Source: an uncultured Dehalococcoidia bacterium
GTDB lineage: Bacteria; Chloroflexota; Dehalococcoidia; SZUA-161
Assembly: GCA_964524995.1 (NCBI GenBank)
Contig: CAZGDV010000001.1
Coordinates: 6,221 to 70,220, forward strand
Direction: 5' to 3'
Length of the DNA stretch: 64,000 bases
Positions within the stretch are counted from its first letter, which is position 1. Each line of letters starts with the position of its first letter. Both the position numbers and the translations under genes were made by a program. The notes under the pieces were generated by a model that did no database searches, was not told the DNA's origin, and saw only the letters and a program-made list of their open reading frames with translations. This document shows, piece by piece, positions 5,983-64,000 of the stretch.

Positions 5983-6451
5983 TTGAGAGCCGTCATTCAA
6001 CGAGTTACCGGGGCATCCGTCACCGTTGATGATAGAACCGTTGCCGAGATCGCCAAGGGCCTCGTCGTACTCGTTGGAGTGGGTGACGGTGACTCAGAGG
6101 ACGACGCCCGCTACCTCGCCGACAAGATAGCCAACCTCCGTATCTTCGCAGACGAAGCAGAGCGATTCAATCTCTCAGCGCTCGATGCTAGTGCCCCAGT
6201 ACTCGTCGTGAGCCAGTTCACGCTGCTGGCTGATACGCGAAAGGGCCGCCGACCCAGCTTCAGTCGCGCGGCGCCGCCCGATGTCGCCGAACCCCTCATC
6301 GAGCAGTTTCGTCGCCTACTTACGGGAAACGGGCCTGACGGTGGAGACAGGGCGTTTCCAGCAACACATGCTCGTCCGCATCAACAACGATGGCCCGGTG
6401 ACGATCATCATCGACAGCGAGGACAGGCAGAGGCCAAGACGACAGGCATAA
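5983..6451 (+). CDS. dtd: D-aminoacyl-tRNA deacylase, interrupted by an apparent +1 frameshift at ~6307-6310
   Basis: Frame 1 from 5983 encodes [15 protein letters not shown]...[34 protein letters not shown], a near-perfect Dtd. After the T-run at 6307-6309 the Dtd C-terminus [40 protein letters not shown] continues in the +1 frame and stops at 6449-6451. The track ORF instead reads through in the wrong frame to 6510. Confidence 0.75.
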
Positions 6452-53535: not shown

Positions 53536-54486
53536 TCACAGCCCTCTCAGGTACTCAGGTCGGAGCGATCCGGGGTCCCTGTTCAACAGCACTTCATCGA
53601 TCTCGCCCAGCATCCTCGCCTTGTCCGTGGGCAGGAACCCGCGTACGGACAGGTAGTTGGACGCGTGCATTGAACTTAAGAAGCACCTCGTAAAGCGGCA
53701 CTGCTGAACAAGTTCCCTGAGTTCACCAAGGAACTCGAAAGGGGACAGAAGAGTGAATCTGCCGTTTTGCCAGTCGTTGTAGAGGGGAGTACCGGGCACG
53801 AGCGTCAGGGTCAGCGCCCCGGTGTACTCTGTGTCGATCTCGGAAAGGACACGTGCCGTCTCGCTCACATGTCTTGCGCTCCCGTCGTCACCCCCGAGAC
53901 CCAGGATCACGGTCAGTGACAGCACCATCCCGGCATCTTTGGCCTTCCTGCCTGCCTCGACCAGTTGGTCGTGGGTGACTCCCTTGCCAACCTTTTCAAG
54001 CACCTGATCGTCGCCGCTCTCAATCCCCGTGTAGAGAATGCCCAGACCCAGGCGGCGCAACTCCCGCAGTTCGTCAGTGCTCCTTCTCAGTATATCCTGC
54101 GGTGTCGCATAGCTACCAATCCTGTGCAGCCCGGGCAGCTTCTCATTCAAGTGCCCGAGGACTTCCGCGAGCCTGTCGTACGGATAGACCAGAGCATCCC
54201 CATCCTGAAGGAAGACCCTTCGCCCATCCCAGCTCTGCGCTATAGCGTACACTATGTCGTCGACGTCGCCCAACCGAACGCCATGCCTCACGTACATAGC
54301 CAGCGCGTCTATCTCGTGCTTTACGTCCTCCACATCACGGACCCTGAGGGCCATACCATAGAAACCGCAGAAGGTACACGTGTTGTTCGAGCAGCCACTG
54401 GTCAGGGGAAGAAAGTAGCTCCTCCGCTCGCTGGGAGGGCGGAATATGTCCGGGCGCTTGAATCCGTCAGCACCTCGCCCCATCAC
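53536..54486 (-). CDS. radical SAM protein with Elp3-type CX4CX2C cluster motif (no GNAT domain)
   Basis: 316 aa; LPLTSGCSNNTCTFCGF (C-x4-C-x2-C as in Elp3-type enzymes), downstream TIM-barrel-like radical-SAM core (LYTGIESGDD); 30 nt upstream of the sirtuin gene on the same strand. Confidence 0.7.
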   Translation of the reverse strand: MMGRGADGFKRPDIFRPPSERRSYFLPLTSGCSNNTCTFCGFYGMALRVRDVEDVKHEIDALAMYVRHGVRLGDVDDIVYAIAQSWDGRRVFLQDGDALVYPYDRLAEVLGHLNEKLPGLHRIGSYATPQDILRRSTDELRELRRLGLGILYTGIESGDDQVLEKVGKGVTHDQLVEAGRKAKDAGMVLSLTVILGLGGDDGSARHVSETARVLSEIDTEYTGALTLTLVPGTPLYNDWQNGRFTLLSPFEFLGELRELVQQCRFTRCFLSSMHASNYLSVRGFLPTDKARMLGEIDEVLLNRDPGSLRPEYLRGL

Positions 54487-54521: not shown

Positions 54522-55358
54522 CTACGCGGGTAGTGGGAGCGCAATCGTGATCCTTATGCGACTGCCTTCACAGACAGCGTAGGAAAGCCTCTCAGGAGCC
54601 TCCAAGCTGCCTATGACCTCTACAGGGGTGAGGGTCCGAATCTCGTCTCCCCTGCTCAAGGGGGTAGGGCCGAGGAAGATGCAGACTGCTTTCGCCGCAG
54701 GCCAATAGCAGATGTCACCGAGCCTGACGACCTCCTGCAGATTCGCCGTTTCCACCTTGGCAGTAACCGGGAAGTACACCTCTTTACCCCACACACTCAC
54801 CCGTGATTCCAAAGGCAAGGCCTTCAGCACAGCAGCGGCCGCTTCACAGCGATTGAAGCAGCCGCGAACCGTCGTTCTTCCCAGAGTGACCTCCACGTCG
54901 GTCAGCACGTCGGTCTGTCTACTTATCCAGTCGAGATGCTCTGAACGTGCCTTGACGATCGGTAGCGCTATGACCTCCGGGATGACGCTGCTGGGTATGT
55001 CCTCTACGATATGCAGTATGTCTCCGAACAGGTCCGCCCTCGTTCTCGCCAGCAGGAAGCTCTCTTCGACACCATGGACACCTTCTCCCTGCCGGACCAC
55101 CGACCTTATCTTCGGCACGATGTTGACCATGGATGCCCTTCTTGAGTCCACCAGTCTCTCGGCGATACGATGAGCTGCCTCGTTCCCAACCACCGTGATA
55201 ACCACGACTACGTGACTGCGATCGACGTCTCCACAATCGCTCCCACCGGATGGCTCGAAGAGCGCGTCAACACCGCTCGATTCCTCCTCACCACCCAGCC
55301 AGGGCTCCGCCATTCTGTCAATGGCTAAGCGCTCACCAACGCTGATACGTCTGCTCAT
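54522..55358 (-). CDS. fusion of CutA1-like domain and cyclophilin-like (DUF3830-type) domain
   Basis: N-terminal region HVVVVITVVGNEAAHRIAERLV...IPEVIALPIVKARSEHLDWI resembles CutA1; C-terminal 120 aa paralogous to the 47888-48268 protein. Confidence 0.55.
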   Translation of the reverse strand: MSRRISVGERLAIDRMAEPWLGGEEESSGVDALFEPSGGSDCGDVDRSHVVVVITVVGNEAAHRIAERLVDSRRASMVNIVPKIRSVVRQGEGVHGVEESFLLARTRADLFGDILHIVEDIPSSVIPEVIALPIVKARSEHLDWISRQTDVLTDVEVTLGRTTVRGCFNRCEAAAAVLKALPLESRVSVWGKEVYFPVTAKVETANLQEVVRLGDICYWPAAKAVCIFLGPTPLSRGDEIRTLTPVEVIGSLEAPERLSYAVCEGSRIRITIALPLPA

Positions 55359-55815
55359 CGATCATCCCTGGATCGGCGCGCCACAGGGGAAGCGACAATA
55401 CCACCGTTCGTAGGCAGATGCTGTTGACCTGGGGTCTCTGATTCACGCATGTCAGCAGTAGCTAGGACCGGGGTCTAAAAAATCTGAAACGTGGCCCGTG
55501 TGTCCGTGCGCCAGGCCAGATTGACTACCACCCCGGCATACGTCCACGAGCCTGTTGGAGTATGATACCATGAGTGCATCTGAGTCCGCAATACACCTTG
55601 GCGGTAACATCACACACGTTCGCTGACCTTGACAAATTCAGACAAATCGTGTAAGAAAGAAGGCACCCTCCACATCGCAGCCGACACAACCCGCCGCTTC
55701 CGCCGCAGAATATCAACGCGCCACCGAAACAGCTATGAGCTACCCTGCGAGCATTCTGTGGGCCGGGGGAGTGTAGTTGGGTTATGGCCGAACCTACACC
55801 AGGATCCAAGCCACT

Positions 55816-56886
55816 ATGAGCCACGCTAACAGTAAGCGCAAGAAGGAGCATCTGGACGTATTCCTGAATGGCAGCGCACACGTCGATGGTGCAAGCACCG
55901 GGCTGGAGTGCTACCGTTTTGTACATCGTGCGCTACCGGAGATCAACCTGGCTGATGTCGACGTCTCGACCAACCTGTTTGGCAAGCAGTTGGGCGCTCC
56001 CATACTGATATCCCCAATGGTCGGTGGGATAGGGGAGGCCGCGAGGGTCAACAGGAACTTAGCGACGGCCGCCCAGGCCCTCGGCTTGGCCATGGGAGTC
56101 GGCTCGCAGCGGTGTGCGATCGACGACCCCGATGCGGTATCCACATACCACGTCCGCGATGTGGCACCCGACATTCTCCTGTTCGCAAACCTGGGTGCCG
56201 TACAGCTCAACTACGGATACAGTGTGTCGGAATGCCAGCGCGCCGTGGACATGATAGACGCGAACGGCCTCATGCTGCATCTCAATCCGTTGCAGGAGGC
56301 CCTTCAGCATGACGGCAACACGGATTTCTCCGGTCTGCTGTCCAAGATCGAACTCGTTTGCCGCAAGCTGAGCGTGCCCGTGATCGTCAAGGAGGTCGGT
56401 TTCGGCATCTCCGAGGATGTCTCCAGATTGCTAGCCAGCGCAGGCGTCGCCGCCATCGACGTCGCTGGAGCCGGCGGCACCTCCTGGAGCGAAGCGGAGA
56501 GGCTCAGAGCCAGCAACAACGGTATCACCGGCGTCGCGGCGGCCTTTGCGGATTGGGGTATACCCACAGCCGATTCCATCATCATGGCGAGGCAGGGTGC
56601 ACCGGATTCCGTGGTCATCGCCAGTGGTGGCGTCTACTCGGGGATCGACATAGCCAAGGCTATGGCCCTAGGCGCTGATGTAGCAGGCATGGCAGCGCCC
56701 CTGCTCAAATTGGCGCACAGCTCCACAGAAGCTGTTGTGCTAGCGCTCCGGAACCTAATACAGGAACTCAAGATCACTATGTTCTGCATTGGCGCCGCCA
56801 ACATCGATGAACTCAAGTCAGCGCCACTCGTGGCTGACTCACCCGGAGGCGGCACACATCGTTCGGAGTGGGAAGGGTGCGCATGA
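55816..56886 (+). CDS. fni: type 2 (FMN-dependent) isopentenyl-diphosphate delta-isomerase
   Basis: ATG 55816 gives MSHANSKRKKEHLDV.. (IDI-2 N-terminus); FMN/TIM-barrel motifs ILISPMVGG, GVGSQR, ASGGVYSGIDIAKAMALGAD. Confidence 0.85.
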   Translation: MSHANSKRKKEHLDVFLNGSAHVDGASTGLECYRFVHRALPEINLADVDVSTNLFGKQLGAPILISPMVGGIGEAARVNRNLATAAQALGLAMGVGSQRCAIDDPDAVSTYHVRDVAPDILLFANLGAVQLNYGYSVSECQRAVDMIDANGLMLHLNPLQEALQHDGNTDFSGLLSKIELVCRKLSVPVIVKEVGFGISEDVSRLLASAGVAAIDVAGAGGTSWSEAERLRASNNGITGVAAAFADWGIPTADSIIMARQGAPDSVVIASGGVYSGIDIAKAMALGADVAGMAAPLLKLAHSSTEAVVLALRNLIQELKITMFCIGAANIDELKSAPLVADSPGGGTHRSEWEGCA

Positions 56887-57917
56887 GCGGTCGTACTCTT
56901 GTTGCGCTGTGGAAGGCGAATGTGCCTCACTGGATCTGGATCGGCGCTCCGGCGTGGATCGGCGGTCTTCTCATGGGGCTGGAGGGCCAGACCGTGGAAT
57001 GGCCTCATGTCCTGCTATTCGTTCTGGCAGTGTTGACCATACAGGCCGCAGCCGAGTTCGCCAACACCTACACCGACAGACACGAGGACCAGCTATATGG
57101 GCCAACCAACACCCTGGTCACCGGCGAGCTCGATGCCGGTCTGGCCAAGAAGGCTCTCATCGCGGAGAATGTGGTTGCAGCCGCGCTGCTGATCGCCCTC
57201 CTTGCCATCACACTCAACTACGCCCTGGTGCTGGTAATGCTCGCTGGCTGGTTCTTCAGTGTAGCGTACTCGGTCCCTCCGCTCAGGTTGAAGGAGACCT
57301 TGTTGGCGCCGCTATCCCACGCCATAGCCTTCGCACTTCTGCCGGTAGCAGGATGGCTCATCGTGCAGCCGTCACTCACCGCCCAGAACGGGTTCATATT
57401 GGGTTTCGCCGGCGTCCTCTTCCTCCACAGCTTCGCCTTGGGCATCACCCTGAAGTTCAGGAAGACCCTGCTTGCTCTGACCTCCGGCCTGGTGCGCCTG
57501 GAGCCGGGTGCCAGCCTGTACAACATGGCTACCGTCGGCTTCAACCTCCGGTTCAGAAACGCCATGACACTGGAGGAGGTAACAGGCCTGGGGGCTTTCG
57601 TACTGGTGCCGATTCTGTGGAGTCTGGGCGTTTTCAACACAACTCTGTCGGTCGGGTTGCTGGTGCTTCCGCTGACCTGTACAGCCCTGGCGGTCATCTT
57701 GAGGGAGAAGGACCCCGTGGCGAACAGCTCCAGGTACAAGGTTCTCATGACGCTCGCCTGGGGTCTCATAGTCGTGCTGCTATTCGGCGTTGGAATGGCC
57801 AACCACGTGCACTACGGCTATGCCCTGATGGCTTCAATCGTCGTGCTTGCCGGTTTCCCTCTACTCGTGCGAATCGTCCATCCCTGGGGCTCCAAGTCCC
57901 TTAGTAGCCGGTGCTGA
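56883..57917 (+). CDS. UbiA-superfamily prenyltransferase
   Basis: Start ATG 56883 overlaps the fni stop (ATGA; translational coupling); 8-9 TM helices; first Asp-rich motif NTYTDRHEDQ (NxxxDxxxD). Confidence 0.75.
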   Translation: MSGRTLVALWKANVPHWIWIGAPAWIGGLLMGLEGQTVEWPHVLLFVLAVLTIQAAAEFANTYTDRHEDQLYGPTNTLVTGELDAGLAKKALIAENVVAAALLIALLAITLNYALVLVMLAGWFFSVAYSVPPLRLKETLLAPLSHAIAFALLPVAGWLIVQPSLTAQNGFILGFAGVLFLHSFALGITLKFRKTLLALTSGLVRLEPGASLYNMATVGFNLRFRNAMTLEEVTGLGAFVLVPILWSLGVFNTTLSVGLLVLPLTCTALAVILREKDPVANSSRYKVLMTLAWGLIVVLLFGVGMANHVHYGYALMASIVVLAGFPLLVRIVHPWGSKSLSSRC

Positions 57918-57963: not shown

Positions 57964-59064
57964 ATGAACGATGAATCCCTAAGACCGAGGCCAACTGAAC
58001 ACCGGGCGACTCACCGTCTGGATGGCCCGATCACCATCGACAGCGTGGAGCGTTACGCACACGGCCTGAGATGGAAGCTGGGGATCAGTACAAACCCTTG
58101 CGTCCAAGCGAGAAGAAACACACGATGCGTCTACTGTGGCTTCCGTAACCACCACAACCCCGTTCCACCCGACGATGTCGGCCACGTCCTCCGCAGAGCG
58201 CTCGAGAGCCGTGATCTGCGCGCAGTGCGTAGACTGGAGCTGTACGTGTCGGGCAGCTTCTTCGACGAGCATGAGGTGTCCGAGCAGTCCACGGATTTGA
58301 TCGCTCAACTTATCGCGGGCAGCACCGTGAATGAAGTCGTACTGGAATCAAGGCCGGAGTTCGTCACTGAAGACCGACTAAGGGCACTCGCACAGCGCTT
58401 GGACCCCAGCCGGGTAATAGTCGCCGTCGGCGTGGAGACAATGGACGACGAGCTTCGCTCCAGGCTGTCCAAGAACTTCAGTACAGACGATGTAGTCAGA
58501 AGTATCGAGGCCGTTGCCCAGGCCGGCATGGGATTCCAGGCCTACCTGCTCCTGAACCCGCCCCTCATCAACGACGACCGGTCTGCGATAGTCGACGTGT
58601 TGACCAGCTCCAGGAGAATCCTGCGTCTCACGTCGAGGCTTCAGTGCAAGACCATCCTGGCTGTCCAACCCTACTTCGTCGCCAAGGAGTCGGCGATAGC
58701 AGAGCGCTTGTCCGCGGAGCCGCCTCCCAGGCCTCCATGGCTGTACACTATTGCGCTGGTTCTGGGGCTGTTGGATGCGATCAGGGGAGAGTGGGTACCG
58801 CCTTTCCAAATCATCCTCGGTAATGAAGTAGACAACGTCGATACCCTGCGCATTCCGGCGAACTACGCCGCCGATGGTGGTGTGTGCGATTGCAGCGATG
58901 GAATCCGGCAACTACTGCGAGAAGTAAATATCTCGCGTGATACAATGCGCGAGCGAGTCCAGCAAGTGCTGGCGGCACCCTGCGAGTGCAGGGAGGCATG
59001 GGAACAGCAGATCGTTGCGGGTGTGTGTGAGTTTGCTTCCACTATACCCGACACGCCCTGGTAG
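57964..59064 (+). CDS. radical SAM-like protein with unusual CX8CX2C spacing
   Basis: ATG 57964 (avoids overlap with the UbiA gene); NPCVQARRNTRCVYCGF cluster motif; downstream LYVSGSFFDE / VGVETMDDELR segments consistent with a radical-SAM TIM barrel; Cys-rich C-terminus (CDCSDG, CECREAWEQQIVAGVCEF). Confidence 0.6.
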   Translation: MNDESLRPRPTEHRATHRLDGPITIDSVERYAHGLRWKLGISTNPCVQARRNTRCVYCGFRNHHNPVPPDDVGHVLRRALESRDLRAVRRLELYVSGSFFDEHEVSEQSTDLIAQLIAGSTVNEVVLESRPEFVTEDRLRALAQRLDPSRVIVAVGVETMDDELRSRLSKNFSTDDVVRSIEAVAQAGMGFQAYLLLNPPLINDDRSAIVDVLTSSRRILRLTSRLQCKTILAVQPYFVAKESAIAERLSAEPPPRPPWLYTIALVLGLLDAIRGEWVPPFQIILGNEVDNVDTLRIPANYAADGGVCDCSDGIRQLLREVNISRDTMRERVQQVLAAPCECREAWEQQIVAGVCEFASTIPDTPW

Positions 59065-59131
59065 CCAACGAATCCACCGGCATGCTTCTGGTTAGGCGGC
59101 CAGCTGCCAGCGTGGACCGAGAGGAGCCCTA

Positions 59132-60307
59132 ATGTCGCAGCGTTATCTCAACCTGAAAGCATACCACCAGTCGGATCTCTTCCATCCCGTCACCAAGGAC
59201 GAGATAGGTTTCGATAGACTATCCAACGTGCTCCCGCCATCGCTGGCCAGTCTGGAGTTGTCCAAGGACAAGCAGGTTGATATCCCCGAGACCGTCCGCA
59301 GCATCTACGCCAAGTACCGGCCCACTCCGCTCGTCAGAGCCAAAGGCTTCGAGAAAGCCATCGGCACGACATGTGAGGTCTATCTGAAGAACGAAGGCGC
59401 AGCCCCCACCGGCAACCACAAGGCGAACAGCGCCTACCTGATCGCCTACCTGTGTCGTAGCGACGGTGCGAAGTACATAGCCACGGAGACCACAGGCAAC
59501 TGGGGCATTGCCCTGGCAATGGCCGGCCGCGAATTGGGCATCAAGGTGGTCTGTTTCCTGGACGAGGAGAGTCACCTGGAGAGACCGGACCGCAAGCCGC
59601 TGATGGAGGGTCTGGGGGCCGAAGTGGTCGTCGTCAGCCCGCCGGACGACGACAAGCTGAGAGACCCGCTCACGATATCGGCTAATGCCGCCATAGACTT
59701 CGTCCGAAGCTCCAAGGACGCATACTACATCTTCGGCAGCGTCTACAATTACTTCATACTCCCCCAGTCGGTCGTCGGTCTGGAGATCAAGAGCCAGCTG
59801 GCTGAGTCGGGCAGATACCCGGACATAGTTGTAGGGACGTGCGGAGGCGGTGCCAGCCTGCTCGGAACAGCAGCCGTGTTCATCGCCGACATCCTGGACG
59901 AGGGCAGGCCAACCAGGATCGTCTCGGCCGAGGCAGAGACCTGCCCGATCCTGTCGGAGGGCAAAGTGGGGCTGTACTCGGTGGACGACAGGCAGCACTT
60001 CCCTCTGCTCAGAACCTACGGCATCGAGGGGCTCAAGGACGGCGACTACATAGGCGGGCTCGGGTCGACTGTACTAGCCAGCTCTGTATCGTTCTTCCAC
60101 TCGGAGGGCATGATCGAGGTGAACCGGTTCAACGCCCAGGAAGCCATGAGAGCGGCCAAGCTTCTGCACGAGAGCGAGGGGATGCTGGTTGCGCTCGAGA
60201 CCGGCTATACCGTGGCGGCGATAATGAAGCAGGCTCAGGAGAACGACAACAAGGTGATCGTAGCTAACGTCAGTTCCGGCGAGACAGACAAGCACTTCTA
60301 TGAATAG
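59132..60307 (+). CDS. PLP-dependent enzyme of the tryptophan-synthase-beta (fold-type II) superfamily, TrpB-like
   Basis: 391 aa; KNEGAAPTGNHKANSA (PLP-lysine motif, compare TrpB K.E..NPTGSHKIN) and ATETTGNWGIALAMAG (compare TrpB TGAGQHG); Gly-rich GTCGGGASLLG PLP-phosphate loop. Confidence 0.75.
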   Translation: MSQRYLNLKAYHQSDLFHPVTKDEIGFDRLSNVLPPSLASLELSKDKQVDIPETVRSIYAKYRPTPLVRAKGFEKAIGTTCEVYLKNEGAAPTGNHKANSAYLIAYLCRSDGAKYIATETTGNWGIALAMAGRELGIKVVCFLDEESHLERPDRKPLMEGLGAEVVVVSPPDDDKLRDPLTISANAAIDFVRSSKDAYYIFGSVYNYFILPQSVVGLEIKSQLAESGRYPDIVVGTCGGGASLLGTAAVFIADILDEGRPTRIVSAEAETCPILSEGKVGLYSVDDRQHFPLLRTYGIEGLKDGDYIGGLGSTVLASSVSFFHSEGMIEVNRFNAQEAMRAAKLLHESEGMLVALETGYTVAAIMKQAQENDNKVIVANVSSGETDKHFYE

Positions 60308-60316
60308 GCCATCATC

Positions 60317-61492
60317 ATGACGACTCCTTACGAAGACTATCTGCAGCAACTCGAACTCGACTTCGAAAGGCCCGACTGTCTCTCGAACAAGGTGAAGCTG
60401 TGCTCCTATCTGGTCTGCTGCGGGGCCACGGTGGAACTGGGCGGCTACGAACGCGACGACAAAGACCTGAGAACAGGCAACTCCGGCCTGCAACTCCTGG
60501 TCGGCCATCCGCAGCTGCGAGCTCTCATCCCCACAGCACACATGAACGACGAGAACCCGGTAATGATCAGGGGCAATGCGGGCGGGCAAGCGGTGCTAGA
60601 GTATGCTGGTATGTCATTCTTCCCCGTCGAAGTGCTCCCCGAGCAGAATACAGGCAACACCACCATCTCCGCCGAGTTCGACACCCTGATCACCGCCATA
60701 CCCAACGAGCCCTACGGTGTACGTAGCTGCCACTTCCACAAGCTGCAGAGTCCCTGCGCCTTCTGCGTACTCACCGAGAAGAGCATGCCCCTGGGCCCGC
60801 CCGACCTCGTCGCTGCCTACGACAAGGTCACAGCCGGATCGGGACGTGCCCCCCAGGTCCTGCTGACCGGCGGTACCGAGCCCAGCGCCGACCGAGGTCT
60901 CGCCAAGTATCTTCCATATGTGGTGGAACTACGGCGCGAGTTCCCCGATGCCCGAGTCGCCATCGAGGCCTCTCCCCCAGAGGACCCCTCGTCCCTCGAT
61001 CCACTGATCGAAGCAGGCATGGACACCTTCGCCGCGAATATCGAGTTCTACTCCGAGCAGACCAGGCGCGACCTGCTTCCGGCGAAATCGAGCATACCCC
61101 TCCACGCATACAGCAACGCCCTCAGCTACTGCAACAGGGCTGGCGTCAGGACATTCTCAGCAGTCATAGCCGGTCCGGAGGGCGATGCCGACACAATCCG
61201 CGCCGTCGAGTTCCTCGCGGACGCCGGAACTCCGACCAACTTCCTGTGCCTGCGCCCCTTCCCTGGTGCCGTACTTGCTGACAGCCCCAGGGTCAACCCC
61301 TCGTGGTACCTGCGCATGACATACGAGGCCAACGCCGTCATGGCACGCCACGGCCTGCTCGACGACCTTGCTGGGACGGCCGGGTGTGGCTCCTGCGGGG
61401 CCTGCTCCATGGAGATGAATCTATACCGGCTCGCTCAGCATCAGGATACCGCCAACGTGGCGGAGGAATGCCCTTGGGTAGCCACATCCTGA
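60317..61492 (+). CDS. radical SAM-like protein, second CX8CX2C member, with C-terminal CxxCxxC cluster
   Basis: 391 aa; RSCHFHKLQSPCAFCVL then LLTGGTEP (GGEP-type SAM-binding glycine motif), C-terminal GTAGCGSCGACS. Confidence 0.5.
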   Translation: MTTPYEDYLQQLELDFERPDCLSNKVKLCSYLVCCGATVELGGYERDDKDLRTGNSGLQLLVGHPQLRALIPTAHMNDENPVMIRGNAGGQAVLEYAGMSFFPVEVLPEQNTGNTTISAEFDTLITAIPNEPYGVRSCHFHKLQSPCAFCVLTEKSMPLGPPDLVAAYDKVTAGSGRAPQVLLTGGTEPSADRGLAKYLPYVVELRREFPDARVAIEASPPEDPSSLDPLIEAGMDTFAANIEFYSEQTRRDLLPAKSSIPLHAYSNALSYCNRAGVRTFSAVIAGPEGDADTIRAVEFLADAGTPTNFLCLRPFPGAVLADSPRVNPSWYLRMTYEANAVMARHGLLDDLAGTAGCGSCGACSMEMNLYRLAQHQDTANVAEECPWVATS

Positions 61493-61562
61493 TTGTGTGC
61501 TTTGATCGTATCACTTCGTGCTAATCCGGTCTCCCGCCACGGCGACATTCCGGAGTCAGAAG

Positions 61563-62897
61563 ATGAAGACCCTGGTCCTTGTGAATCCAGCACATCAGCT
61601 CAAGCCGAATCTGGCAACCATTCTCAGGCTGCCCTCGGCGAGCCTGGCCTACCTGGCTGCCCTTACACCGGCAGACTGGGAGATCAAGCTCATCGACGAG
61701 AACACCGAACCCCTGACATACGACGGTGCCGACCTGGTAGCCATCACGTCATACACGTGTAACGCTCCGAGAGGCTACGAGATATCTCAAGAGTACAGGC
61801 GTCGTGGTGTCAAGACCGTCATGGGCGGCGTCCACGTCTCACTCATGTCCTCCGAGGCTTCCGAATATGTGGATTCGGTGGCGATTGGAGAGGGTGAGTC
61901 AATCTGGGCACAGGTGATATCGGACTTCGAAAACGGTTCCCTCAAGCCCGTCTACCAGGGTGACCGCCTGTCCCTTGACAGCCTGCCCAGGCCCAACAGG
62001 ACCATCTACGGCAAGCGCTATCGTCTGGCCTCAGTCGAGACATCGCGCGGCTGCCCTAATGACTGCGAGTTCTGCTCCGTCACAACCTTCAACGGCCATA
62101 CCTACAGGCAGAGGCCCGTGGACGAAGTCCTCGCCGAACTCGAGGGCCTGACCGGCAAGTATTTCTTTTTCTCCGACGACAACATACTCGGCTACGGCCA
62201 CAAAGCAGAAGACAGGGCAATTCGCCTTTTCCGTGGCATGATCGACCGTGGGCTCAAGAAGCGATGGGCCGCGTATGTCGGCATCGACTTCGTCAACAAC
62301 CCCGAGGTAGTCGAGTACGCCAGGAAGGCCGGTTGCCTCGGGGTCTTCATCGGCTTCGAGTCCATCGATGAGGAGTCGCTGAAGGGCATGCACAAGGTGA
62401 GGAACCTGCGCATGGGTGTGGCCAGATACAAAGACGTCGTCAAGATACTGCATGGTCACGGAATAGGCGTGTTGGGCTCCTTCGTTCTCGGCAGCGACAC
62501 CGACGACAAGGACGTATTCGACAGGACCACCGAATTCGTTCTCGATTCGAGGATGGACGCCGCACAGTTCTCGATCCTGAACCCTTTCCCGGGAACGAGG
62601 CTATACGACCGGCTCATGCGCGAAGGCAGGCTCCTGCGAACGGACTACCCCTCTGACTGGAAGCACTATGACTTCACGGAGGCCCTTTTCCAACCCAGGA
62701 ACATGACTCCGGAGGAGCTGGAGGAGGGTGTGGCACGCATGTACAAGAACACCACGTCCCGCGCCACATCCGCGAAACGAGCACTTGTCTCCGCTATACA
62801 GACGCGCAGTCCCTTCGGTGCCGTCGTTGCATATCTCGGAAACCGGGGTGCGGGCGACTTATGGGAGAAGAGGTACGCGGGCAAGATCGGGTCCTGA
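61563..62897 (+). CDS. cobalamin-binding class B radical SAM enzyme (likely C-methyltransferase or cyclase type)
   Basis: ATG 61563 with GGAG RBS gives MKTLVLVNPA.. B12-binding Rossmann-like N-domain; canonical radical-SAM SRGCPNDCEFC; overall HpnP/BchE/GenK-like architecture. Confidence 0.8.
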   Translation: MKTLVLVNPAHQLKPNLATILRLPSASLAYLAALTPADWEIKLIDENTEPLTYDGADLVAITSYTCNAPRGYEISQEYRRRGVKTVMGGVHVSLMSSEASEYVDSVAIGEGESIWAQVISDFENGSLKPVYQGDRLSLDSLPRPNRTIYGKRYRLASVETSRGCPNDCEFCSVTTFNGHTYRQRPVDEVLAELEGLTGKYFFFSDDNILGYGHKAEDRAIRLFRGMIDRGLKKRWAAYVGIDFVNNPEVVEYARKAGCLGVFIGFESIDEESLKGMHKVRNLRMGVARYKDVVKILHGHGIGVLGSFVLGSDTDDKDVFDRTTEFVLDSRMDAAQFSILNPFPGTRLYDRLMREGRLLRTDYPSDWKHYDFTEALFQPRNMTPEELEEGVARMYKNTTSRATSAKRALVSAIQTRSPFGAVVAYLGNRGAGDLWEKRYAGKIGS

Positions 62898-62934
62898 CAC
62901 GAGCCACTTGCCGCGAGTGCTATACTCTGATCAA

Positions 62935-64000
62935 TGAGAGCGTACATACTACCGACGGACTTCACTATCGATCCATTCGGTGACCACCCCAGCGACTCCC
63001 TCATCGGAAACAGGGCCCTCCGCGACCTGCAGGCAGGCGTCCTGTACAGCCTGGGCATCCCTCTACAGCGAGCGGGCTCCCTATCAGAGGTAGAGCAAAG
63101 CGACGAGCGCCTGCTCATCACAGACAGCGTCTTCTTCAGCACAGAACTCGTTCGGGAGTTCATCGAGACCTCGCGGAAGCGCGGGCGAAGCACGGTTTGC
63201 GCCCTCAAACCGGGCTTGTTCACCCATCACAGCCTCGTCACAACCCAGAAGGTATCCGTCCACCCGGATCGGGTCGAATACGGCCTGCGCTATGATCCGG
63301 GGAGAGGTCGATCAGGCGAAGCCGAGCCGGTCGTGATCGATCCTGAGGGGTTCTCCCAACCCTTCCCAATGCCAGCCCATGTCCTCGGCGGAAGCGAACT
63401 CCGCATCCCTCTGACAACCAAGGCCATAGTCCAGCTCGACCACTGGGCCAACATCTGGGCTGCCAACATGGCCCTTCTGCTGGCCCGCCTCGCCAGGCTC
63501 CGAGTTGCGCCCAAGCCGAGGCTATTCACCCTGGTGCTCTGGGCACGTTCCCTCAACAAGTGGCGGTTGCTCACCAAGTGCAACTGCGTGGGTAGAGGAT
63601 GCGACATCCACCCCACAGCGTACGTCGAAGCCAGCAACATCGGCGACAATGTAATGATCGGCGCCGGGTCCGTCGTGAGAGCTTCCATCATCGGCAACGG
63701 CGTCAGCATCGGCAGTAACTCCACGGTTGAATGCTCCGTGATAGGCGACGGGTGTGCCATCGACTCGAACAGCGCCACTTTCTGCTCCGTCCTCTACCCG
63801 GGCACAGCCACTTCAACGAGGCAGATACTGGCCAGCCTCTGCGGCAGGGACACGTTCGTCGCGGATGGCGTGTTCCTCGCCGACTACCGTTTCGACGGCA
63901 GGACGGTAGCAGTGAATGTGAATGGGCGGATGGTCGATACGGGAAGCGTCGCGCTCGGCCCATGCTTGGGCCATGGTGTCTATCTGGGGGCTGGATGCGT
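62935..64000 (+). CDS. hexapeptide-repeat (left-handed beta-helix) transferase-family protein, 5' part (runs off right window edge)
   Basis: Open + frame from ATG 62935 to the window end. C-terminal half is clear [LIV]G-x-x-x-x hexapeptide repeats (IGDNVMIGAGSVVRASIIGNGVSIGSNSTVECSVIGDGCAIDSNS). Not in the ORF track because no stop lies within the window. Confidence 0.6.

Follow-up and report, generated by a model that had tools for sequence, protein, structure and literature searches.

A predicted radical SAM pair with CX8CX2C cluster loops and a TrpB-like PLP enzyme form the conserved core of an isoprenoid operon in Dehalococcoidia

The DNA analysed here (the window; 64,000 nucleotides, positions 6,221 to 70,220 of the forward strand of contig CAZGDV010000001.1, GenBank assembly GCA_964524995.1) comes from an uncultured Dehalococcoidia bacterium of the lineage SZUA-161 (Chloroflexota) and carries, at 57964-61492, three plus-strand genes: two encode radical S-adenosylmethionine (SAM) proteins with a non-canonical cysteine spacing, here termed rSAM_A (57964..59064; 366 amino acids) and rSAM_B (60317..61492; 391 amino acids), and the one between them encodes a TrpB2-like fold-type II pyridoxal 5'-phosphate (PLP) enzyme (59132..60307). 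rSAM_A, the PLP enzyme and rSAM_B form a constant core that has been passed on as one unit both in Dehalococcoidia and in Falkowbacteria of the candidate phyla radiation (CPR). Weighing all the evidence set out below, we consider it moderately probable that this radical SAM pair and PLP core, set in an isoprenoid operon, builds a specialised prenylated small molecule.

The genes for rSAM_A and the PLP enzyme were present in all 12 examined loci that carry a full-length rSAM_B, and the identities of the cassette proteins co-varied across loci. The association with a TrpB-like enzyme, pointed out in a preliminary description made from the letters of the window, is thereby upheld as synteny in two phyla. 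Close homologues were few (~65, 48 and 43 clusters at 90% identity for rSAM_A, rSAM_B and the PLP enzyme, respectively), and the named ones came nearly all from metagenome-assembled genomes (MAGs) of Dehalococcoidia/Chloroflexi, plus CPR Falkowbacteria; a scan of 185,579 species genomes gave at least 7 loci, a figure that is indicative of rarity and not an exact measure of it. The Falkowbacteria cluster consists of rSAM_A, a 637-amino-acid B12-binding radical SAM protein, a SPASM-type radical SAM protein, a 438-amino-acid protein weakly similar to cytosylglucuronate synthase (glycosyltransferase-like), the PLP enzyme, a CobC-like histidine phosphatase and rSAM_B. No paper on the rSAM_A/TrpB-like/rSAM_B cassette was found in the literature. 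On one Dehalococcoidia MAG chromosome (CP070819.1; L013 10001-10153), tblastn found only a 51-residue C-terminal match to rSAM_B, which adjoins an intact gene for a B12-binding radical SAM protein; no rSAM_A or PLP gene was detected in the 10 kb upstream, and the remnant may represent decay of the cassette.

Each of the two radical SAM proteins contains one CX8CX2C motif, CVQARRNTRCVYC in rSAM_A (58099..58137, plus strand; residues 46-58, C46-X8-C55-X2-C58) and CHFHKLQSPCAFC in rSAM_B (60728..60766, plus strand; residues 138-150, C138-X8-C147-X2-C150), which amounts to a five-residue insertion relative to the canonical CX3CX2C. The preliminary description had located these motifs correctly in the two open reading frames and had named an overlooked canonical motif as grounds for giving up its proposal; no CX3CX2C was found anywhere in rSAM_A or rSAM_B. 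Among full-length close homologues CX8CX2C was kept in 58/58 (rSAM_A) and 42/42 (rSAM_B), and because of this full conservation the motif is not due to chance. The start of rSAM_A was placed at ATG 57964 and not at the head of a longer TTG open reading frame from 57847, on the basis of homologue lengths and of gene calls on identical contigs; outside the cluster motif its only cysteines are C228, C308, C310, C340, C342 and C355. The Pfam model PF04055 (gathering score 29.5 bits) was matched marginally above threshold by both proteins (rSAM_A, 32.7 bits; rSAM_B, 29.7 bits). AlphaFold2 models were built from the family alignments and reached predicted template modelling scores (pTM) of 0.89 for rSAM_A and 0.88 for rSAM_B, the mean predicted local distance difference test value (pLDDT) being low (53) near the rSAM_B motif at residues 141-150. 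In both models CX8CX2C lies between beta-1 and alpha-1, and beta-2 is closed by a conserved SGS (rSAM_A) or TGG (rSAM_B); these are the canonical places of the radical SAM cluster loop and of the GGE-type SAM contact. The models have the partial TIM-barrel fold of radical SAM enzymes, and top matches in Foldseek searches were all radical SAM structures with probability 1.00, namely Elp3, the MCR glutamine methylase MgmA and PFL-AE for rSAM_A, and lipoyl synthase LipA, PFL-AE and biotin synthase BioB for rSAM_B. A profile-to-profile alignment of the two families was weak; it brought into register the two loops, SGS with TGG, and also the cysteine motifs near the C-termini. The early impression that both proteins are radical-SAM-like is thus supported by Pfam thresholds, by models and by nearest structures, and both are, as judged from sequence and model, predicted radical SAM enzymes in which the CX8CX2C loop would make up the [4Fe-4S] site that binds SAM.

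Against TIGR01210, the curated model of RaSEA, rSAM_A scored 123.2 bits, below the cutoff of 212.15. It aligned with archaeal RaSEA along the whole length; the aligned parts comprise the cluster loop, the motifs SGSFFD and ESRPEF and the cysteine pairs near the C-terminus, and W37, C46, C55, C58, SGS, E128, R130, C310, C340, C342 and W346 were invariant across the rSAM_A group and RaSEA. It differs from RaSEA in that an insert of ~14 residues after the conserved tryptophan is missing and in that the C-terminal site reads CxC...CxC instead of CxxC...CxC. The rSAM_A family profile also matched queuine lyase (PDB 6P78, E=9e-17), whose CX4CX2C was in register with C46/C55/C58; here the likeness was limited to the N-terminal ~150 residues of queuine lyase. 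As in rSAM_A, non-canonical spacing is found family-wide in RaSEA and queuine lyase: among the archaeal RaSEA-like sequences retrieved, the cluster-loop spacing was 7 residues (n=20), 9 (n=13), 4 (n=11), 8 (n=5) or 13 (n=1), so a loop that is long and varies in length characterises the RaSEA family. These alignments assign rSAM_A as a bacterial paralogue of the TIGR01210 family, to which the archaeosine enzyme RaSEA and queuine lyase belong. The possibility that it is RaSEA itself, which acts together with ArcS/ArcTGT on preQ0-Lys in archaeal tRNA, was rejected because of the score below the cutoff, the missing ArcS and the bacterial hosts; no ArcS or TGT gene was present in any locus examined, and the neighbours are UbiA and the TrpB-like enzyme. 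A RaSEA-ArcS complex has been described (PMC11298593). Of the profile searches suggested at the outset, the one with TIGR01210 gave the sub-cutoff match described above, and TIGR01212 gave no match to rSAM_A; the Elp3/YhcC (TIGR01212) subgroup provided the nearest solved folds and weak profile matches, and differs from rSAM_A by an acetyltransferase domain that the latter does not have. In the case of a lone rSAM_A relative (L022 10001-11032; 40% identical, with the same CX8CX2C), the gene start overlaps the last part of a P-type ATPase gene, and no PLP or variant-rSAM partner is present.

rSAM_B has an N-terminal domain of ~130 amino acids ahead of the radical SAM part and scored below the curated cutoffs of both NF045502 (63.8 bits, cutoff 125) and TIGR04043 (MSMEG_0568 family; 66.4 bits, cutoff 303.7). 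Neither the rSAM_B sequence nor its family profile retrieved anything but noise in sequence searches of the PDB. An exhaustive profile search (E<=1e-3) collected 839 cluster representatives, and CX8CX2C together with a C-terminal CX2CX2C, both traits of the variant_rSAM family, was present in rSAM_B as in nearly all of the listed representatives; NF045502 was matched above or near its cutoff by 9/10 representatives tested (P0170-P0196 pass), and scores dropped from 536 to 224 bits beyond the rSAM_B clade, which is tight and separate. With the Nit1C radical SAM proteins of NF045502/TIGR04043 (Megacluster-4-6), rSAM_B shares the CX8CX2C, the phenylalanine before the last cysteine, the GG after beta-2, the C-terminal CX2CX2C, an N-terminal cysteine and the domain order; its neighbours, by contrast, are the PLP enzyme, the B12-binding radical SAM protein and UbiA, and not the GNAT, nitrilase and flavoprotein genes of Nit1C type. 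By profile and motif rSAM_B can be placed as a divergent subfamily of the NF045502/TIGR04043 'variant rSAM' family, within the BioB/ThiH-like subgroup. In the literature on TIGR04043/MSMEG_0568, nothing was found beyond mentions of a radical SAM gene in Nit1C clusters.

The cluster cysteines C138, C147 and C150 of rSAM_B were 100% conserved in the wider family (96/96 sequences). The segment GGTEP (60869-60883, plus strand; residues 185-189) had been proposed as a GGE-type motif, of which the GG part holds and the E-P does not: conservation was limited to LLTGG[T/N], and the two residues that follow vary freely, E-P being specific to the rSAM_B of the window. The C-terminal CGSCGAC (61385..61405, plus strand; residues 357-363), a putative auxiliary Fe-S site, occurred as CGSCG[AG]C in 42/42 homologues. 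Among 96 family members C357, C360 and C363 were conserved to 88-98% and the N-terminal C34, by which the site is probably completed, to 74%; this wide conservation fits a four-cysteine auxiliary cluster. The initial proposal of such a cluster at CGSCGAC therefore stands, as a predicted site conserved family-wide together with an N-terminal cysteine, and rSAM_B probably has a second, four-cysteine Fe-S site. C29, C35 and C311 are additional invariant cysteines specific to its own subfamily. Among solved structures, LipA and BioB come closest to rSAM_B in fold, and each of these radical SAM enzymes carries an auxiliary Fe-S cluster; that of LipA is held by an N-terminal cysteine triad and by the C-terminal chain end, and the recruitment of ligands from both chain ends resembles C34 plus CX2CX2C in rSAM_B. 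Both enzymes differ from rSAM_B in having a canonical CX3CX2C, and there was no detectable sequence match; by analogy with them, sulfur insertion by rSAM_B may be conjectured.

The CX8CX2C spacing itself is real but catalogued, and is not a discovery in its own right: RadicalSAM.org gives CX8CX2C for Megacluster-4-6 of the biotin/thiazole-synthase subgroup, and CX7 and CX11 spacings for the ELP3/YhcC subgroup (PMC9477430). The preliminary description had taken the spacing to mark distinct subfamilies, which was not sustained; no newly recognised class is defined by it, since the spacing varies within the TIGR01210 lineage (4, 7, 8, 9, 13) and CX8CX2C is listed for Megacluster-4-6. The comparators it had named, HmdB (CX5), QueE (CX14) and ThiC, are radical SAM enzymes whose cluster motifs likewise depart from the canonical one; they proved to be of unrelated lineages and gave no match in Pfam, NCBIfam or structure searches.

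The PLP enzyme matched PF00291 with 151 bits and scored below the cutoffs of the curated TrpB and TrpB-like models (NF009057, 270.5 bits, cutoff 366; TIGR01415, 249.5 bits, cutoff 519; TIGR00263, 114 bits, cutoff 392). Its best PDB matches and best solved relatives were the stand-alone TrpB2 structures 6HTE/4QYS (E ~1e-47), with which the PLP-lysine motif GNHKANS and the motif TETTGNWG aligned at the TrpB2 lysine and the catalytic glutamate-loop motif (TET..G.WG); the glutamate loop is one residue shorter than in TrpB2. GNHK.NS and TETTGNWG were conserved in 112/120 relatives. Relatives with 50-56% identity were found in cultured Virgibacillus, Kutzneria, Micromonospora, Nocardia and Scytonema, and these closest relatives outside the cassette sit in clusters for non-ribosomal peptide synthetases (NRPS) and polyketide synthases (PKS): the two loci inspected (Virgibacillus pantothenticus, L018 10001-11176; Kutzneria albida, L019 10001-11164; 50-55% identity) both lie inside NRPS/PKS clusters and are accompanied by no radical SAM genes. 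Such a setting suggests, by analogy, that the PLP enzyme works on its own to synthesise a non-proteinogenic, beta-substituted amino acid. The Kutzneria homologue adjoins an aromatic ammonia-lyase/aminomutase gene.

Further evidence for coupling came from natural fusion proteins of 770-940 amino acids from other organisms, retrieved with the rSAM_B profile, in which a RaSEA-like N-terminal half (CX7CX2C) is joined to a variant-rSAM C-terminal half; for fusion P0216, hhalign gave probabilities of 96.6% for the RaSEA-like and 99.5% for the variant-rSAM half. Next to the fusion genes lies a flavodoxin-like FMN reductase, joined in one case by an aminotransferase, and in the nearest outgroup variant-rSAM loci the next gene downstream encodes a class I/II (PLP) aminotransferase. 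The pairing of a variant-rSAM protein with a PLP enzyme and the pairing of the two radical SAM types are therefore recurrent, and rSAM_A and rSAM_B probably work as a pair. Two of the loci with fusions (783-910 amino acids; L014 8001-10352 and L015 4842-7574) also showed large unannotated or HATPase_c_3/HD-CE proteins as neighbours, with phage-type regulators close by in L014; PADLOC returned no match for the fusion proteins.

Beyond the three genes of the preliminary description, a third, B12-binding radical SAM enzyme and a surrounding seven-gene isoprenoid operon were identified. All genes are on the plus strand and, with identical contigs used for the part beyond the window, follow the order IDI2, UbiA, rSAM_A, PLP enzyme, rSAM_B, B12-binding radical SAM protein and left-handed beta-helix (LbH) protein, gaps of 9-67 bp separating the last five. 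The first gene (55777..56886) encodes a type 2 (FMN-dependent) isopentenyl-diphosphate isomerase, IDI2 (TIGR02151, 408 bits, cutoff 281). It is followed by a UbiA-family membrane prenyltransferase (56883..57917; PF01040, 56.6 bits, cutoff 34.2), for which a longer open reading frame begins at 56868 and gene calls on identical contigs begin at 56883; its best family matches were weak (ChlG/BchG, heme O synthase), and no PDB sequence match was obtained. The gene downstream of rSAM_B (61518..62897; start on identical contigs, 61563) encodes a protein with an N-terminal B12 domain (PF02310, 40.1 bits), a radical SAM domain (PF04055, 60.7 bits) and a canonical CX3CX2C (CPNDCEFC), as in class B radical SAM enzymes, and its best family matches, BchE, HpnR and HpnJ, were all sub-threshold. 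The last gene (62934..64000, cut by the window end) encodes a GlmU/eIF2B-epsilon-like LbH (hexapeptide) protein, which on the identical contigs (L020/L021) has 402 amino acids and carries Pfam LbH_EIF2B/GMPPB_C; a convergent ABC-2 transporter pair comes next on those contigs. The PDB matches of the LbH protein were the LbH domains of ST0452 and GlmU. No riboswitch, preQ1 or other, was found upstream of the operon or in eight related loci, and PADLOC returned no defence-system match for the cassette proteins.

In other loci the isoprenoid setting recurs in Dehalococcoidia. UbiA adjoins the core in five of them (L007-L010, L012), IDI2 is also kept in four of these five (L007, L008, L010, L012), and three (L007, L008, L012) have one or two extra UbiA paralogues as well as LbH homologues; in one of the five DXS and a polyprenyl synthase lie upstream. 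The B12-binding radical SAM gene is syntenic in L001, L009 and L012 and accompanies the core in most loci whose downstream side is on the contig. Upstream of the operon in the window, and divergent from it, lies a gene for a 316-amino-acid non-canonical radical SAM protein (53536-54486, minus strand; CSNNTCTFC, CX4CX2C), which resembles the core of a B12-type radical SAM protein but has no B12 domain and is not kept beside the cassette in other loci; between it and the operon a 278-amino-acid CutA1-cyclophilin-like domain fusion is encoded (54522-55358, minus strand). On a Falkowbacteria contig, a LOOT RNA (Rfam RF03000, 81.6 bits; L005 19415-19533) was found in a phage-like stretch ~8 kb from the cassette.

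Taking core and operon together, the operon probably makes a prenylated, amino-acid-derived compound, and the best-fitting product is most likely a prenylated beta-substituted amino acid derivative. In such a pathway to a specialised small molecule, the PLP enzyme would form or consume a beta-substituted alanine via beta-replacement on serine or phosphoserine, rSAM_A would, by analogy with RaSEA and queuine lyase (QueL), perform a radical bond scission, and rSAM_B with its auxiliary cluster may carry out a radical insertion or cyclisation in the manner of BioB or LipA. The B12 enzyme would methylate, and the UbiA enzyme would attach a polyprenyl chain to give a membrane-anchored product. Several observations weigh against this proposal. 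Neither L001 nor the CPR loci have IDI2 or UbiA beside the cassette, and prenylation would therefore be a lineage-specific decoration and not part of the core; the CPR B12-binding radical SAM proteins are only 26-28% identical to those of Dehalococcoidia, by sequence a different subfamily. The rSAM_A relative with 40% identity stands alone beside a P-type ATPase, neither rSAM_A nor rSAM_B reaches the curated cutoffs of the NCBIfam families mentioned above, and their PF04055 scores are only just over threshold. To our knowledge, no reaction is known for any member of the rSAM_A or rSAM_B subfamilies or of the whole variant-rSAM family, and the chemical roles given above are assigned by analogy. 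A more specific version is correspondingly tentative, and we regard it as possible but doubtful: rSAM_A, the TrpB-like enzyme and rSAM_B would form a two-radical-SAM/PLP machine, with the radical SAM pair in a complex (compare the fusions), that makes a new amino-acid-derived head group, which would be methylated and polyprenylated into a membrane cofactor or lipid in Dehalococcoidia and glycosylated or phosphorylated in CPR.

Other products would be compatible with parts of the same evidence. The isoprenoid lipid itself might be the substrate, with the radical SAM and B12 enzymes tailoring a polyprenyl or ether lipid and the TrpB-like enzyme adding a serine-derived alanyl head group to yield a new membrane lipid; up to three UbiA paralogues, IDI2, DXS and polyprenyl synthase in the clusters are in line with this, as are the best (weak) matches of the B12-binding radical SAM protein, which include the hopanoid/ladderane lipid enzymes HpnR, HpnJ and TIGR04072. 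However, CPR loci keep the core without prenyl genes, L001 has it without UbiA, and the relatives of the PLP enzyme serve NRPS pathways and so point to a free amino acid, which makes a lipid substrate unlikely in our view. We rate as decidedly unlikely a cassette whose target is a 7-deazapurine or some other nucleoside or nucleotide, either free or within tRNA. In that case rSAM_A, as a lyase of the RaSEA/queuine-lyase type, would cleave a C-N bond in a deazaguanine adduct, and the amino-acid moiety would be provided or attached by the PLP enzyme. The sole characterised relatives of rSAM_A, RaSEA and queuine lyase, do both act on 7-deazaguanine derivatives, and the CPR cluster has the CobC-like phosphatase, the weakly cytosylglucuronate-synthase-like protein, an adjacent HD protein and nearby tRNA synthetase and RsmI genes; set against this are the TIGR01210 score of 123 versus 212, the absence of ArcS, TGT and Que genes from all loci, the lack of a preQ1 or other riboswitch among those sought and, in Dehalococcoidia, the isoprenoid setting (IDI2, UbiA, DXS, polyprenyl synthase).

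Maturation of a ribosomally synthesised and post-translationally modified peptide (RiPP), whose precursor would be the substrate of the radical SAM enzymes, appears highly improbable and was rejected because no precursor open reading frame was found. Several radical SAM enzymes, including B12-type and, in CPR, SPASM-type ones, are common in RiPP clusters, but the intergenic gaps of 9-67 bp leave no space for a precursor gene, no precursor, protease or RRE domain was detected, and neither IDI2 and UbiA nor a TrpB-like enzyme is characteristic of RiPP clusters. There is likewise very little likelihood that rSAM_A, rSAM_B or both have degenerated into 'pseudo' radical SAM proteins, whose cysteines would bind zinc or a structural cluster and which would not cleave SAM. 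The marginal Pfam scores and the low pLDDT of rSAM_B residues 141-150 could be read in that way; low pLDDT is, however, expected in cofactor loops of apo models, the three cysteines, the F/Y before the last cysteine and the GG or SGS closing beta-2 are strictly conserved in hundreds of relatives, and the relatives queuine lyase and RaSEA are described in the literature as active radical SAM enzymes.

A catalytically competent radical SAM pair with a PLP partner in the service of a prenylated small molecule thus remains the reading we prefer. What seems to be new here is the gene set, rSAM_A, the TrpB-like enzyme and rSAM_B with the B12-binding radical SAM protein and the prenylation genes, which looks undescribed; its interest lies in a compact operon kept in two phyla and not in the cysteine spacing. 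The variant-rSAM family comprises hundreds of sequence clusters with no known reaction, for which the operon offers a tractable entry point. We know the RaSEA lineage only from 7-deazaguanine chemistry, and Dehalococcoidia are hard to culture, their membrane cofactors being poorly known; the operon is also an entry point to this lineage and possibly to a new prenylated Dehalococcoidia metabolite. If the trio does act as a head-group machine, the large CX8CX2C variant-rSAM family would gain its first function, and the RaSEA lineage a new role outside tRNA.

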